A DNA stretch of 64,000 bases from the NCBI GenBank assembly GCA_951406725.2, contig OX597822.1, forward strand, positions 27,590,001 through 27,654,000. The letters are read 5' to 3'. A program made the position numbers and the translations under genes. This document shows positions 43,163-50,783 of the stretch, in pieces. This DNA is from Octopus vulgaris. Lineage: Eukaryota. The stretch's first letter is position 1. Every line of letters starts with the position of its first letter. Under the pieces are notes generated by a model. The model ran no database searches and had not been told where the DNA came from. It was given only the letters and a program-made list of their open reading frames with translations.

Positions 43163-43544
43163 GGCCATCAAATATGAAAAATTACCGTTATATAAAGGGA
43201 AATTAATGTGTTATAATTCCGCTACTTGTATAAATTAAGATTAAAAGTTCATAGTAAACACGTAAACATGGCTACTCATACGCTCACATGTGCGCTCGAG
43301 GGCCCACGTGCGTACTTATACGTCACTATGAAAACGTACACATATTCATTCGTATTTTTCGCCAAATGTATACACATATATGTACAAACTCATACACACA
43401 CACACGCGTACCCTAAAAGTTCATACATATGTCTATATACGCACACAGTTCCCTCTATTTACATAATATTGAGGTCTCTTTCTTTCTTTTGTTATTTTAC
43501 CGTTTTTACCAATATATATATATATTCATATTTATATATATATA

Positions 43545-44080
43545 CAGGGTGTCCCCAAAAAATGTATACATAGACTGCAACAGTCTGTCATGCCAAGCAT
43601 TAGAGAGGACTTTGAACAGGAAGAGTTTTATTTCCAGCAAGATGGGGCACCTCTACACTACCATCGCGATGTTAGATCCTTTCTTGATGGGATCTTGCCA
43701 AACAGGTGGATTGGACGGAGAGATTTTGTCGAATACCCTCCACGTTCACCAGACCTCACACCACTAGACTTCTTTTTATGGGGATACCTAAAGGACAAAG
43801 TCTACGCACAGAAACCTGCAACTGTCGTTCAATTGAGGGCAACCATTGAACATGAATGTACGAATATCCCAAGGGAATTGTTCCATGATGTGTGCCATTC
43901 CATCGCTTCGCGTTGTCAGCAGTGTCTGGAGCAGAACGGACATCAGTTTGAGAACATGCGATAACAAGACAACAGAATGATATTTGTAAATTCTTTTACA
44001 TGTTGAAAATTATTCGAGTTATAATAAACCCCAAATTTACAATTATTTAAGGTGTGTATACATTTTTTGAGGACACCCTG
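43545..44080 (+). mobile_element. Deleted Tc1/mariner element of the DD41D (rosa/VS) group
   Basis: TIRs CAGGGTGTCC.CAAAAAATGTATACA, TA flanks. FQQDGAP..SPDLTPLDFFLWG with 41 residues between the last two catalytic Asp. Confidence 0.88.
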
Positions 44081-44219: not shown

Positions 44220-45250
44220 GTGGCAAGCCAGGACTCACTTTCGCAACAACAGCCTGCTACTGTTACTACATTAGAAGCACCTTGTTTGACACCACTATCT
44301 GACCTGATTCCAACCAGCCCTACTGTTGCAAGTCAAGTTTCACTGCCGCCACAGCAGCAGCAACAACAACAACAACAGTCTGCTACTGCTACAGAACCAC
44401 TGACCAATGAGCCTGCCAATATTGAAAAACCTCTACTATGCCCACGTCAAATGCCATTCTTAAGGTAACTGTATATTTGGCCCCAGCTGGCACTGACAAC
44501 ACTTGTTAAGGACATCTGTCCATATAGTATAACGGGAAAAAACTGACCCCACCTCCACAGCAAATACTGTCCTAAAGACAGAGTCCATGGCTCTGATCCT
44601 AAATATGGATGCACAAAAGGCACCTTCTTCCATCCTAAACTGTGCCAAACATCTGTGTCACTAAGGTTGTGCTTGAAACCAGAATGCAATCACCACCATC
44701 TGAAGGGCACAACACTATCGAAGAATAATTATAAAAAGCAACAGAAACAAAATACAACCACACTTCTCCTCTTACAACCAAACAACGAAGACAGAACTAT
44801 GGAAAAGCCATAACACCAAATAATATAAATATGAACTATGTATCATATGACCAAGTGGCAAACCATAGAGGCAACACTTTTTTACTAACTTATTTAGAAA
44901 AAATGAAGGCCAACCTAAGGCAGGAGATCCAACGAGCTATCAGCAACCATTTATGCAAAACACAAGGAACACCAACCCACCACCAACTAGAAAATCATAC
45001 ACACACAGCCCCATAGAAAAAGTACCCTCATTGCTACCTCTGAACAACAGAAGCATAACTTTGAACAATGCAAACATCAAAGTACCCTTACCTCGAAATC
45101 CCTGCTAAATTTACGTGGCATCAACCCATCACTCATTGTCCAAAAGTGGAAGATTCCATTTATAGAGAGCTGGCTTGCCAAAACGGCACATTGCTTCCCT
45201 TTCTTAATCCTTACTTAAACTCACCTAAACAGCACACATGGATGCCGAGG
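44220..45250 (+). pseudogene. Decayed 5' part of a LINE: CCCH-finger ORF1 and start of the APE endonuclease
   Basis: 44517-44711 translates CPYSITGKN*PHLHSKYC..GCTKGTFFHPKLCQTSVSLRLCLKPECNHHHLKGT. Downstream is LLNLRGI..LILT*THL. Confidence 0.55.
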
Positions 45251-45327
<77 letters not shown>

Positions 45328-45385
45328 TACGGAGATGTACTCGCATAGCAATTAATTTGATCTGAGATCGTGTGCTGAAACGAAA

Positions 45386-45685
45386 ACAATTGCAGCGTGG
45401 AAGGTGTTTATAAGCCATTTAAGAAACACACAAAAGCCGTTCGATTCATTTCAACATTTAAGTTTAATTTGTCAAGATATTTTCGTCGCTTAGAGACCGC
45501 GACCTGTTCACTGACAAAAATCCGTGCTGCATCTCAGTGATGCAGCACGGATTTTTGTCAGTGAACAGGTCGCGGATTTTAGCAACGAAAATATTTTGAC
45601 AAATTAAACTTAAATGTTGAAGTGAATCGAACGGCTTTTGTGTGTTTCTTAAATGGCTTATAAACACCTTCCACGCTGCAATTGT
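45386..45685. repeat. ~300-bp foldback palindrome (148/147-bp arms, 5-nt loop) with a hammerhead variant in each arm
   Basis: Arms at 45386-45533 and 45539-45685. The ORF track shows MAYKHLPRCNC on both strands. Confidence 0.92.
45554..45603 (+). ncRNA. Type I hammerhead, G3-C8 compensatory core variant (mirror copy 45468-45518 on -)
   Basis: TTTGTCA-GTGAACA-g-GTCGC-loop-GC(G/A)AC-GAAA-ata-TTT-TGACAAA. Confidence 0.65.
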
Positions 45686-46113
45686 ATATATATATATATA
45701 TATATACTAACATTAAAGACCCGTCGTTGCCGGGTCATAGTGCTAGTGCATGTATATATGTGTACATATTACATGTACATCTATAAATATACATCTACAC
45801 ATAAAAGCAAAATACAAAGTTATATCTTGATATCGCTAGTGATAACAATACTCAAAATATATAACAGACTGGAATGGTTTTATTATTACCCACAAGGGGC
45901 GAACATAGAGGGGACAATACAACCTAATGTGGGGTCAGATTCTCGGATGGAGTTACAAAAAAGATGAGATTAAAAATTCACAAAAATACAAAAAATATAA
46001 AATCGAATGAAGAACAGACCGGAAGACATTACGGATGGAGTGGGGGCGGGTTTAGCTCGGACCCCACGAGCCCCACCTCACCACTGATACTTTGGTTTCG
46101 TCTTGTTTTACAT

Positions 46114-49100
46114 TTATGTGGTGTCATCCATTCGCAACTTTCGTGCTACATCCTTCCATCGTTCTTCATACACTGTCTTAGTCAGGCATTTTCTCTCCAG
46201 CCCTATCTTCCTTTTCAGGTGAAAGATGAAGTAATTCATCAAACCAGGGCCGGATATGAACTTGCCTGACCGTAAACCTTTCATTCTCGTCTTCCATATC
46301 ACCTCTTTCGCAATTGCTACCACAACGAGAAAACAATTCTTACCTTCTTTCGCGAGGAAATCTGGTGGGTCAATTTTTGTAATAGACTCAGTCGACAGCT
46401 GTACTCTTCGTGTGCTTGACAACAGCTGTTCGGCATAAACCCACACCTCAGACACGACCGAACAATGAACAATAGCGTGCGGGACGGTTTCCCTATCCCG
46501 CTCGCATCTTGGACATATCGGACTGTCTTGGCCACCGTGCCTTGCGAGTTTATCCCGAACAGGTAGAGCTCCTCTGTAGCATTGCCATGCCAGAGACTTC
46601 TGGAAGTTGTCCAGTGTCTTCGGCTCGAACGTACGTCGGAACAGACTGGCCAGCTGATTATCGTCGAGACCTAGGGTTTCCCCCAAGGTATCTTCACATT
46701 CCGCCTCTACCAACCCTCTATAGAAGAATGTGGTGGAACCCCCACCGCAGGCGTTGCCCGAGCGATGGAATAGCAGGAGAGCCTTGCGACACTCCGTGTA
46801 CCATGTGCCTAGTTTCGATCTACGATTCAGCCAGGTTTCCCATCCACCGAAACTAGTGAACTTGGGAAACATCAGTTTTGCTAGCGGAGACCACACCCGT
46901 TCACCATCCAGGTAGAGCCACAGATGTCTTAACCTCAGCGCATGTCTGCGCATCATCAGCCAAGGCATCCCTAGCCCACCCTTTAACGGTTGTTGACAGC
47001 AAGTAGAGCGTTTCACAAGTGGTTTCCGCCCTTCCACAAGAAGTAGAAGAGCTGTCTTTCCAACTTGATCAACCACGAATCAGGGCAAGGAACGACGGAA
47101 AGGCGGTAGGTGATAACCGATGCGATAAACACATTGGCCACCTCCGCCCTCCCTTTCAGGGATAGCCACCGCCAAGACCAGGTCTTGGTTACTGCAGCCA
47201 CCCTGCTCGATACCTCGCCCCAATTCTTCTCTATTTGGAGGTCTGGACCGAACCAAACCCCTAGCAACTTAATCGGACCCTCCGTCCAACGTCCCACGAC
47301 GCTGTCAGGAGGCATCGACTTGCCTCTCCAGGTGCCGAGTTGCAAGCCGACTGACTTTTCGCGATTAACTTTTGCTCCTGTCACCGTCTCGTAAACCTCT
47401 ATGGCCTTGCCTACTTTACGTAGGTGATCCATTTCGGTTACGATGATGGTGATGTCATCCGCGTACGCTGACACCGATTTTCCACTACCTGGCTGTCTCG
47501 GGATGCCGCTCAGTTTTCGCAGTAATGGCTCAAGAGCCATCACGTACAAAAGCGGGGAGAGCGGACACCCTTGACGAACCGAGCGCTTGATGTTGAACGG
47601 CTTCGACAAGAAGCCGTTCACCCGAACTACCGAGTCGATGTTGTCGTAAATTTGGATAATCCACCTGAGGAAGCCAAGGCCCAGCCCGAACTGTGCCAGG
47701 GCAGATACCAGGTAGCGATGGTCGACCCTATCGAACGCTTTAGATTGGTCTAAATGGACCAGTGCCCCACCCTTGCCAGAATCACTATTAAACCCCTCTA
47801 TAGTGTACCGCATAAGATGGAGATTATCCTGAATGGTTCTGCCGGGAACGGCACATGTCTGTGCCTCCCCGATCAGACCATCCGCGACACGCGCCAATCT
47901 TTTCGATAACACTTTGGCCAAAATCTTCAACTCTGTGTTTAGCAGAGTGATGGGCCTGAAATTATCAATGCACTCCCCCTTGCTCGGGCCCTTTCTGACG
48001 AGTGTCACTACTCCCCGGCGCACAGATCTGGGTATGAACCCGTTCTGCTGCCAGTTCACATAGACCTCCACCTGTAGGTGCCCGAACAAGTCTGGCATAC
48101 TCTTATATAACTCATAGGGTAGACCATCTAAACCCGGTGCCTTGCCCGCGCCGCAGTCCGCCATCGCCTCAACCACCTCCCCAGGCGTGATTGGCCCTTC
48201 ACAGCCCTCCGCATCTCGCCCCGATAAGCGCGGCAGCCGTCGAGGAGGTCCGTAAAGGCCCTCCTCCTATCCAGTCCGCCGCACTCACCGAAAAGCTGAG
48301 CGAAGTGCTCCTGAAAGGCCTCACACATCTCCTCGGGCTCGTTTATCAACTCACCTTGTTGGTTCGTTATAGATCGAATCGTGGCGTCGTTACCACGCTG
48401 AGCTTCCACCACTAGGGCCCATCTCACGGCGTTGATTCCTTCACAACCCATTTCGCGGATCCTAGCCCTGACAATGCAGCCCATGTGTTTGGCCTCGAGG
48501 TGCTGGTTTAACGCCAGTCTCTTGGCCGCCACCTGAACCGCAGAGCCAGTTTTCAAGGCTTCCTCTAATTCCTTAACTAGATTAGATTCCCTCCTAGCCT
48601 CTCTAGCCACTAATCCTATGCTATATCTAATTGACTCGAATTTGATGGCTCGCTTGAGGGCATACCACCATTTGTTATTAATGATGGCACCAGATAGCGC
48701 CCTCTGAATTATAGTCCTAATCCGGTCTCTGTACTCCTTAATCGCCAAAAGGGACGTATTAAGTTTCCAGTAACCGGAGCCTCTATTTTTAACCTTATCT
48801 ATGTCAAGCTTACAGGTGACCATTTTATGATCACTGTAGCTGACCAGGTAAAACTGTGGACACTTAGCTATTTTTCTGTCTACTTTTCTAATTAGTATCC
48901 TATCTATATATGACCTGGAAGATCCGTCGCTGTTTGACCATGTCCACAATAGAGCGTTCGGAAATTCTAACCTATAAGGATCTGCTAGCTCAAAGCGGCT
49001 TAGCAGTTCCAGGAAGCCAATGTTACCTTTTCTATCTGGACGCAAGCCAACACAATCTACATCCGCTTTGCAAATTGTGTTAAAGTCTCCTAGCACAACT

Positions 49101-49508
49101 AATGAATGCGAAGTACCAAGAAAGTTTTCCAGTTCTCGAAAATAATCACTTTGCCCTTTTTGGTTGGGTGCGTAAATTGCAACCAGTCTGATAACTTTAC
49201 CGTTACTGAACGTCAAATCCATGACGACCAGCCTATCTTCTGGTTCTGAAAAAATTAACTTTTTCTCAAAAACCCGGTTTCTTTTTAATAGGACCAACAC
49301 CCCACCTCCGCCTGTAGGACTGGCCGGAGAGAAAAAAACTCTCGTAGCCGTCAAACAGCGGGAGTAGACCTCTTGGCCCCTCTAACCGGGTTTCTGTAGC
49401 AACAATAACATCCAAATTACGTGACCTGATATCATTAAGGAAGCGACCTTGCTTCCAGCTTGATCCCAGGCCGCGCACATTTAAACAACCAACATAAATG
49501 CAATCCAT
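46114..49508 (-). pseudogene. ORF2: APE endonuclease + RT + CCHC finger, three frameshifts
   Basis: CLNVRGL, ATET, LGDFN, YIDR, SDH; KAPGLDGLP, FRPITLLNTELKI, DQSKAFD, VRQGCPLSP, YADD; CPRC..HAIVHC. Confidence 0.93.
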
Positions 49509-49516
49509 AGCTTACC

Positions 49517-50783
49517 TTATATCAGTGGTTCGACTTGTTCGACTTGTTCGACTTGTTTTTCGTCGTCTTCTTCACTTTTATTTTTTTCCTTGGCTCGTGG
49601 GGGAGTCCGACGCAGGCCCTCGTATAAATATGGAGATATGTCCAATCTCAGAGGGCCCACGTCGTGAAAGAATTCGGATTTTATCCGTCCGTAATCCTTC
49701 CGGCCTATTCTATAAACAATACAGTCTTTTGTTTTTTTCATTTTTTCCACTTTGGCCATGGCTGCCAAAACATTAACTAGCCTGTTGTTGGTAGCCTTAA
49801 TGGCCATAAATGTATTAGTCGCTTCTTTCCTCTTTTTTTGGCTCTCTTTCTGAGGGGTGGTTTCTGTTTTCCGGTTTTTTTTTGGTAATTTTTGACCACC
49901 CATCCTCTTTTTCTTTTTCTTCGCCACTTGTTGTTTCTTCTACCTCTTTGGTTTCTGTAGTTTCTGGTGTTTTCTCTTCTGTTTTCTCTTCTGTTTTTTC
50001 TTTTTCCGGCGGTGCTACTTCCTGCGGTTTAGGTTGACACTCCGCTCTTACGTGCCCCTTTTTACCGCAGCCGAAGCACCTCGGCTTTCTGCCCTCCACA
50101 AACACTAGCACCCTCTCCACCTCGCTGAGCCTCAATATCTCCGGTATTTCTTCTAACGTTTGGACCTCCGCCTGAATCGCCATTGTGATACATTGGCCTT
50201 GCCAAAACCCCTCCTCCTCTACTGTAGCCTGTCCTCCAGGCCCAACATCACTGCCGCCACCAGGCATGTGGCGTCCGCTTCTGGCGGAATATTTTTCATT
50301 AATAGTTTTGAGGTCCTTCTGCCTCTGTACAGGGGGAGAAGGACTATATTCTCCGCTTTTTGAGGTTCGGTTGATAGCTTCTTGGCTATCTCCTCAGTCC
50401 TGAACCTCACCTCAATTGTTCCAAACTTTCTGCCACGGTTTATATACGTAATGTCTTTCCTTATTGTCTTCAGACAATCCTCTATCTTTTTTTCCTCCAC
50501 TCTTTGAATGCTTTTCATCGTTGTATTGTATGTCTTGTAGATAATCCTTTTTCTTTCTACTTCTTCTTTCTTTCTGACGTCTGATTCCACTGCTATTTCA
50601 TTTCCTTCCTTTTTCAAAAGTGCTTCATACTTTTCTAGGTTGCTCTTATCTGTGTTGATTTATTTTTGTTTTTTTCCTGCAACTTCTGCGAACTTCTTCG
50701 CTGGGGCCTGTTCTTTTTCCGGCGTCACCACCGGTGAACTTTCTTCACCTGATACAGGTGAATATGAGATAGGAGTCTCCATC
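49517..50783 (-). pseudogene. ORF1: gag-like protein with CCHC zinc knuckle, frameshifted
   Basis: RCFGCGKKGHVRAEC followed by a charged low-complexity region; pieces in successive frames upstream of ORF2. Confidence 0.8.

Follow-up and report, generated by a model that had tools for sequence, protein, structure and literature searches.

A natural G3:C8 hammerhead-type motif in a likely Penelope-like retroelement stub of Octopus vulgaris

The 64,000-nucleotide stretch of the Octopus vulgaris genome analyzed here (contig OX597822.1, positions 27,590,001 to 27,654,000; hereafter the window) contains a palindrome, both arms of which carry a hammerhead-like sequence with guanosine at core position 3 and cytidine at position 8. 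Such a 3:8 swap is the classic laboratory rescue, and its occurrence in a genome raises the questions of what kind of element the palindrome represents, how far the swap extends beyond this locus, and whether the motif still cleaves. With reasonable confidence we favour the reading that an endonuclease-bearing Penelope-like retroelement (PLE) inserted here as a stub, with two 5'-end pieces placed head to head in (TA)n and bearing a family-wide swapped hammerhead that likely still cuts slowly.

The inverted repeat supposed by the sequence-only reading is present and near-perfect: the arms at 45386-45490 and 45581-45685 are 97 % complementary, and the inner halves pair as well. The element is, however, larger than the proposed 300 bp, since the left arm runs on for 59 nt past the palindrome as a one-sided tail, giving ~360 bp in total (Table 1). 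Whole-arm alignment reveals 7 differences in ~145 nt. Loop II accounts for four of them (one gap, three substitutions) and the spacer for one; the remaining two affect stem II in the right arm (45584) and position 16.1 in the left (45476). The right arm begins one base past the likely transcription start. Start codons are located at 45418 (-) in the left arm and at 45653 (+) in the right arm. The host genome (2.8 Gb) is rich in TA and TACA microsatellites.

Table 1. Features of the palindrome and its flanks (window coordinates)
Feature	Position	Strand	Basis or details
(TA)n microsatellite, left part of likely insertion target	45254..45326	.	sequence; most sampled copies end in (TA)n
One-sided tail of long arm, ~codons 11-30 of PLE ORF	45327..45385	-	translation matches ORF start in L075
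Long (left) arm: likely transcription start plus one extra G, hammerhead, 5' UTR, ORF start	45386..45535	-	
Left hammerhead motif	45468..45518	-	G3 45511, C8 45506, U17 45475, stem II intact
3-nt junction joining the head-to-head arms	45536..45538	.	
Short (right) arm: hammerhead, 5' UTR, first 11 ORF codons, tail absent	45539..45685	+	
Right hammerhead motif	45554..45603	+	G3 45561, C8 45566, stem II mismatch 45584
(TA)n microsatellite, right part of likely insertion target	45686..45706	.	sequence

The locus is almost certainly a PLE stub. A search pattern with positions 3, 7 and 8 left free has 4,787 exact matches in the genome (reversed control, 0), and in long copies (L031, L073-L077) the repeat is directly preceded by an open reading frame (ORF) with reverse transcriptase (RT) motifs, a CxxxCxxC linker (read in the L031 ORF) and a GIY-YIG domain. 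The PLE ORF expected beside the repeat was thus found; Pfam assigns GIY-YIG (E 1.8e-5), and the neighbour clusters in the Atlas are RVT_1, HTH_animal and GIY-YIG at 0.95-0.97. Three pieces of the L031 ORF and the L080 ORF yielded no Pfam matches, the RT itself was never matched, and a PDB sequence search gave 0 matches. One and the same repeat (pLTR) is found at the end of the element in L073 and at the beginning of the ORF in L075. The left arm is 94-95 % identical to the pLTRs of the long-ORF copies L031, L073, L075 and L077, and the right arm 96-98 % identical to those of the long-ORF copies. In L075, the frame from the ATG of the arm runs on into the ORF; since the tail of the left arm moreover corresponds to ~codons 11-30, each arm comprises the 3' end of the pLTR, the 5' UTR and the ORF start. 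The inverted, 5'-truncated second copy and the tail confined to one end are traits of endonuclease-bearing (EN+) PLEs; the CxxxCxxC linker and the (TA)n flanks appear to be features of the Neptune/Nematis type. Some PLEs have an intron in the pLTR or 5' UTR. Here, an acceptor-like site is located upstream of the motif and its AG is kept by the copies; a reading as splice acceptor is not favoured, as 0 spliced-like joins were found in 262 loci.

Eighty loci, comprising the first 85 of 100 places listed among the 4,787 matches, were sampled for the insertion form of the family. They contain 49 head-to-head palindromes, 30 solo arms and one wider pair, and 44 of the 49 palindromes pair a long with a short arm. 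The long/short palindrome is the usual insertion form of the family, and the layout of the present locus is an ordinary one. One palindrome recurs with identical junction and flanks in 12 of the 80 loci (L113, L139-L142, L144, L158, L173-L175, L177 and L180); given their common flanks, these copies were carried within a larger repeat, and the palindrome was taken only once in the counts of arm ends. The 3' ends of the arms are bimodal, at ~+120-127 or +179-199 from G3, the upper range being inflated by TA in the reference. Among the 5' starts of 108 arms, 54 fall at -26..-15 and 23 at -14..-3 (the latter partly an alignment effect of subfamily differences), 14 extend into the pLTR, five lie inside the motif, one at the predicted cut and 11 further downstream. 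A start anchor was available for 43 of the 92 motif-covering arms: 11 extend into the pLTR, 22 start at an A and 10 one base later. In 12 of the 22 arms starting at the A, the preceding base is G where the pLTR has C or T, half of which (6/12) could be explained by microhomology with the partner arm, as judged by eye. An extra G opposite the cap is known from other retroelements. From these ends we infer that transcription may start ~22 nt upstream of G3 and that the stubs may be cDNAs reaching from internal starts back to the cap; the distal end of the left-arm tail would then mark the distal start of reverse transcription. Several partner arms and loose contig ends begin at ~+60 to +75 from G3, where RT may pause or microhomology may exist, unless clustered variants have shifted the alignment.

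Formation of the stub may accordingly be pictured as follows. Transcription would begin ~22 nt upstream of G3, and the protein of the element would nick both strands of a TA tract. Reverse transcription would start at two internal sites in the ORF start (~+124 and ~+183), and both cDNAs would extend toward the cap through the uncut hammerhead before being joined, which would leave a palindrome with a one-sided tail. The text of PMC8557442 describes PLE insertions into TA targets in which an inverted 5'-truncated copy is accompanied by a tail on one side, and for an element of Anolis the text of PMC11167929 describes a tail delimited by two internal RT start sites in the 5' end of the ORF as well as cutting and extension of both target strands. 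The swap would have arisen once in an ancestral master element and been kept by selection on the RNA fold, the family motif still cutting slowly, as a dimer or with the protein of the element.

The hammerhead-type motif with natural G3:C8, 7-bp stem I and 5-bp stem II described by the sequence-only reading is indeed seen in both arms, which also have an extra G after A9 and U17. A hammerhead-derived fold with a compensated pair is very probably real: the window has two occurrences of the core-plus-stem-II motif, where 0.00 would be expected, and the features of minimal type I hammerheads, i.e., stems I and II around the core, the extra base after A9, G10.1-C11.1 and the GAAA box, are present. 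A15.1-U16.1, H17 and the palindromic stem III are found in the family and in the right arm (stem III at 45590-45595, U17 at 45596, predicted cut at 45596/45597), whereas the left arm has C16.1; the AATATT stem III supposed for each arm is intact in the right arm and not in the left. An alternative C17 register for the left arm was discarded, the C at 45476 being a minority letter. The literal CUGANGA box is absent, as the family reads GUGAACA, and an Rfam scan of the whole window at gathering thresholds gave 0 matches. When a natural copy is folded computationally from the inferred transcription start, the pairs of stems I and II form with probabilities of 0.7-1.0; taken by itself, the duplex of stem III amounts to only -0.2 kcal/mol.

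The two arms of this palindrome represent the two main subfamily types, with a 9-nt loop II in the left and an 8-nt loop II in the right arm. The clustering of arm differences in loop II had been taken to argue against a read artefact and to fit the predicted fold. The former is borne out, the motif occurring in thousands of copies and in the runs of four organisms, but the differences are subfamily markers and reflect no selection here. Arms of mixed subfamily were found in 2 of 22 scorable sampled palindromes, and likewise in L004 and L011. The two cDNAs at the locus were probably made from templates of two different subfamilies, which, as a single event, is the simplest reading; it draws almost wholly on loop II, and in L124 the two arms do not differ at the remaining marker sites, so that conversion may be involved instead, or a master element in tandem form bearing both versions of the pLTR. 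It had also been supposed that each copy has one defect that the other lacks. Both minority changes are present: the change of U16.1 to C in the left arm departs from 98.5-99.9 % of contig depth in four runs, and the stem II change in the right arm is a CpG-type transition. Mutual complementation is not to be expected, however, since the arms lie on opposite strands and a read-through RNA would thus comprise one sense and one antisense copy rather than a complementing dimer; this RNA is computed to fold as a hairpin of -248 kcal/mol. Both hammerhead copies at the locus are probably inert.

Beyond the locus, the swap is family-wide. On one scaffold, defined by the GAAA box, the ends of stem II and a common end of stem I (controls 0-1), the genome contains 6,455 G3:C8, 4,316 C3:G8, 243 G3:G8 and 45 C3:C8 matches; 10,771 of these 11,059 matches for the four C/G combinations (97 %) have a complementary 3:8 pair. 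G3:C8 is present in 96 of 100 matches listed for the 4,787-match pattern. With A or U at both positions, the same scaffold yielded 18 scattered matches (7 U:A, 8 A:U, 2 A:A, 1 U:U), and no canonical revertant lineage was seen within the family, C3:G8 occurring in 0 of 12 copies changed at both positions. The complementarity of 32/32 rows is no test of pairing, as the patterns used for picking these rows required it. The C3:G8 matches belong to sister PLE families with equal architecture and a homologous tail. In the most abundant of these, A9 is changed to C and fixed in thousands of copies, with intact ORFs of 1,312 aa; it was seen in L080, L081, L091, L215 and most C3:G8 matches listed. G3:G8 matches exceed C3:C8 fivefold and may include copies amplified locally or a sub-lineage that has lost the pairing; 143 of the 243 G3:G8 copies lie outside the matches listed.

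A tree was calculated from 34 hand-picked copies using the sequence downstream of the motif, i.e., with the core excluded, and with a midpoint root only. All 13 C3:G8 rows fall on one side of a branch with 99/97 support, and 19 G3:C8 rows together with two decayed singles fall on the opposite side. Since the pairings divide at one supported branch, a single old swap event is suggested; C3:G8 is taken as the ancestral state because it is the general consensus. The covariation therefore counts as n = 1, and the large copy numbers represent inherited copies. Older families also belong to the G3:C8 side, at branch lengths of 0.13-0.55 changes per site; they differ in loop II and N7, and their stem III palindrome is shorter. 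Independent variation of positions 3 and 8 among copies, held beforehand to speak against the motif, is uninformative in this respect, as neutral decay after insertion gives the same result; between families, the pair covaries. A coding constraint on the swap was ruled out, since the ORF begins ~92 nt downstream and the short upstream ATG frame differs between subfamilies.

Selection on the fold is likely to have preserved the swap, judging from the distribution of shared variants, i.e., those present in at least 4 of 87 compared arms. Loop II has such variants in 6 of its 9 columns, the spacer in 8 of 49, the ORF in 8 of 36 and stem I in 2 of 14; the 28 columns of core, stem II and stem III have none (core alone 0/14), though the search pattern had fixed many core and stem columns in one arm per locus and thus introduces a partial bias. 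Contigs of four runs from four organisms, assembled without pattern selection, contain no core-position variant at or above 5 %; variation of the motif in these contigs comprises loop II, low-level stem II transitions and one stem I change. The common stem I variant retains a G-U pair, and one stem II pair alternates between G-C and A-U among families. The 3:8 pair forms solely in the active hammerhead fold. As the motif directly follows the likely start site, constraints on the promoter or the 5' UTR could add to the conservation.

For the intact family motif, we consider cleavage only slightly more probable than not. The rescue by the C3G/G8C double mutant invoked by the sequence-only reading agrees with the literature insofar as rescue is partial, both in the text of PMC8495972 and for a protein-requiring PLE hammerhead in that of PMC11167929; a G3-C8 laboratory construct is also mentioned in the text of PMC3884650. 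The same PLE stub could, on the other hand, carry a non-cleaving motif whose fold persists as a 5' UTR structure (for protein binding, RT pausing or translation) or by overlap with the promoter, an alternative that we consider unlikely but that has to be taken seriously. It would explain why nearly all copies were reverse-transcribed through the site: the one arm of 108 that starts at the predicted cut is accounted for by microhomology, although this tally rests on partner arms and only the 17 arms starting inside or after the motif are free of selection. Loose ends at the cut site number 0 among the contig ends listed, contigs being unable to show RNA ends. U17, the weak stem III and A9C in the sister family would all suit a relaxed catalysis, A9C indicating that core changes are tolerated in these elements. 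The excess of G3:G8 over C3:C8 copies is a further point against cleavage, or at best a neutral one. In one study, small variants of PLE hammerheads reportedly cleaved as dimers. Weak cleavage, as dimers, of minimal PLE hammerheads is described in the texts of PMC4209133 and PMC6765202, and in the Anolis element hammerhead mutants had no effect on insertion in vitro and no RNA reads ended at the cut, according to the text of PMC11167929. The missing cut-site ends are, however, not specific to the swap, since a sister sample, mostly A9C and of equal bias, likewise has 0 of 31 arms at the cut. Further points against loss of cleavage are the fixation of unpaired catalytic positions in contigs free of pattern selection and the complementarity of positions 3 and 8 across the genome.

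Fixation of the double change by chance in one dead-ribozyme master, followed by amplification without selection, appears quite improbable. The single origin on the tree and the ensuing lack of independence among copies would be as expected from it, as would the 243 G3:G8 copies; yet the pair was kept over 0.13-0.55 changes per site while loop II, N7, stem III and the flanks turned over, and the contrast between loop II and core columns, even if partly pattern-biased, likewise speaks against it. Least of all do we expect that the palindrome arose by fold-back during assembly, or that it is a DNA element of MITE type bounded by terminal inverted repeats, as its near-perfect symmetry over 300 bp and the amplification of one family palindrome as a unit might suggest: junctions vary by locus, solo arms make up 30 of the 80 loci, a tail is present on one side only, and pLTR and ORF start of a retroelement compose the arm. 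The arms from two subfamilies would be impossible to make by fold-back, and the amplified copies rode in a larger repeat, as their common flanks indicate.

In comparison with known systems, the motif resembles the PLE hammerheads described in the main text of Cervera and de la Pena 2014 (PMC4209133), i.e., type I in the pLTR with an extra nucleotide between 9 and 10.1, G10.1-C11.1, a palindromic stem III, thousands of dispersed copies and opposite-strand pairs 100-700 bp apart. Natural covariation of 3:8 is reported there too, in the form of U3-A8 in Schistosoma; the double transversion to G3:C8 in octopus is unmentioned in that main text. In contrast to the Schistosoma families, the octopus motif combines a longer stem I (7 bp) with a shorter stem II (5 bp), and it has U at position 17. 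A compensatory 3:8 change among natural core variants is likewise described in the text of Perreault et al. 2011 (PMC3088659), again as U3-A8 and not G3-C8. Similarities also exist to PAc, a Poseidon PLE of Anolis carolinensis (Frangieh et al. 2024, PMC11167929), for which the text reports a hammerhead near the ORF start, a tail bounded by two internal RT starts in the 5' end of the ORF, an AT-rich target cut on both strands, uncut RNA as template and partial rescue by C3G/G8C. In PAc, however, the swap was made as a mutant in the laboratory and stem II contains the start of the ORF, whereas the octopus swap is natural, its ATG lies ~92 nt after G3 and the CxxxCxxC linker is a Neptune/Nematis feature. 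Neptune and Nematis EN+ PLEs, as described in the text of Craig et al. 2021 (PMC8557442), have a C-terminal GIY-YIG domain, a CX2-5CxxC linker and microsatellite targets, the linker and (TA)n targeting being common to both, as well as an inverted copy at the 5' end and a one-ended tail; the octopus insertions differ by a tail of 59 nt versus 30-40 and by the many insertions consisting of two start-proximal stubs alone. A natural G3:C8 pair was not found in the literature searched as text, the figures or supplements of which, including those of PMC4209133, could show one. The G3:C8 swap is unusual and the layout ordinary; since natural U3:A8 covariation is known, the surprise is limited.

If true, a natural swap kept across a deep retroelement clade would mean that evolution needs the pair and not the guanine at this position, and that standard descriptors miss whole families, with ~6,500 motifs in this genome alone. 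Since sister motifs of equal architecture, both canonical and A9C, occur alongside, a ready panel exists for studying the role of PLE hammerheads in transposition. The stub palindromes are moreover an in vivo match to the pair of internal RT starts known from in vitro work. One may speculate further, with considerable doubt as to the whole, that a deep and recently amplified PLE clade relies on a natural C3G/G8C hammerhead that is active and places cytidine in the general-acid position, slow cutting keeping the uncut 5' end as template. The sister family would have got there by A9C, the mixed-subfamily palindromes would go back to single events in which a protein dimer inserted two different RNAs, one on each of the opposite strands, and thousands of motifs would escape CUGANGA descriptors and Rfam.

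Several other repeats are located around the palindrome. On the right, a short end, presumably Helitron-like, adjoins the TA tract (45706-45747), with a GC hairpin at 45718-45736 followed by CTAG at 45743-45746. Further right, a LINE that we take to be Tx1-like spans 46114-50659 (-), with endonuclease and RT ORFs in pieces and a gag-like ORF upstream, and a sister-PLE copy (L090, 27651000-27660900) is located at and slightly past the right end of the window. To the left, 43473-43964 (+) contains a transposase remnant, presumably Tc1/mariner-like. The region 44600-45253 is a decayed 3' piece, apparently of another PLE, which ends in a fragment resembling another hammerhead-bearing repeat, one that is present in L003 and L015.
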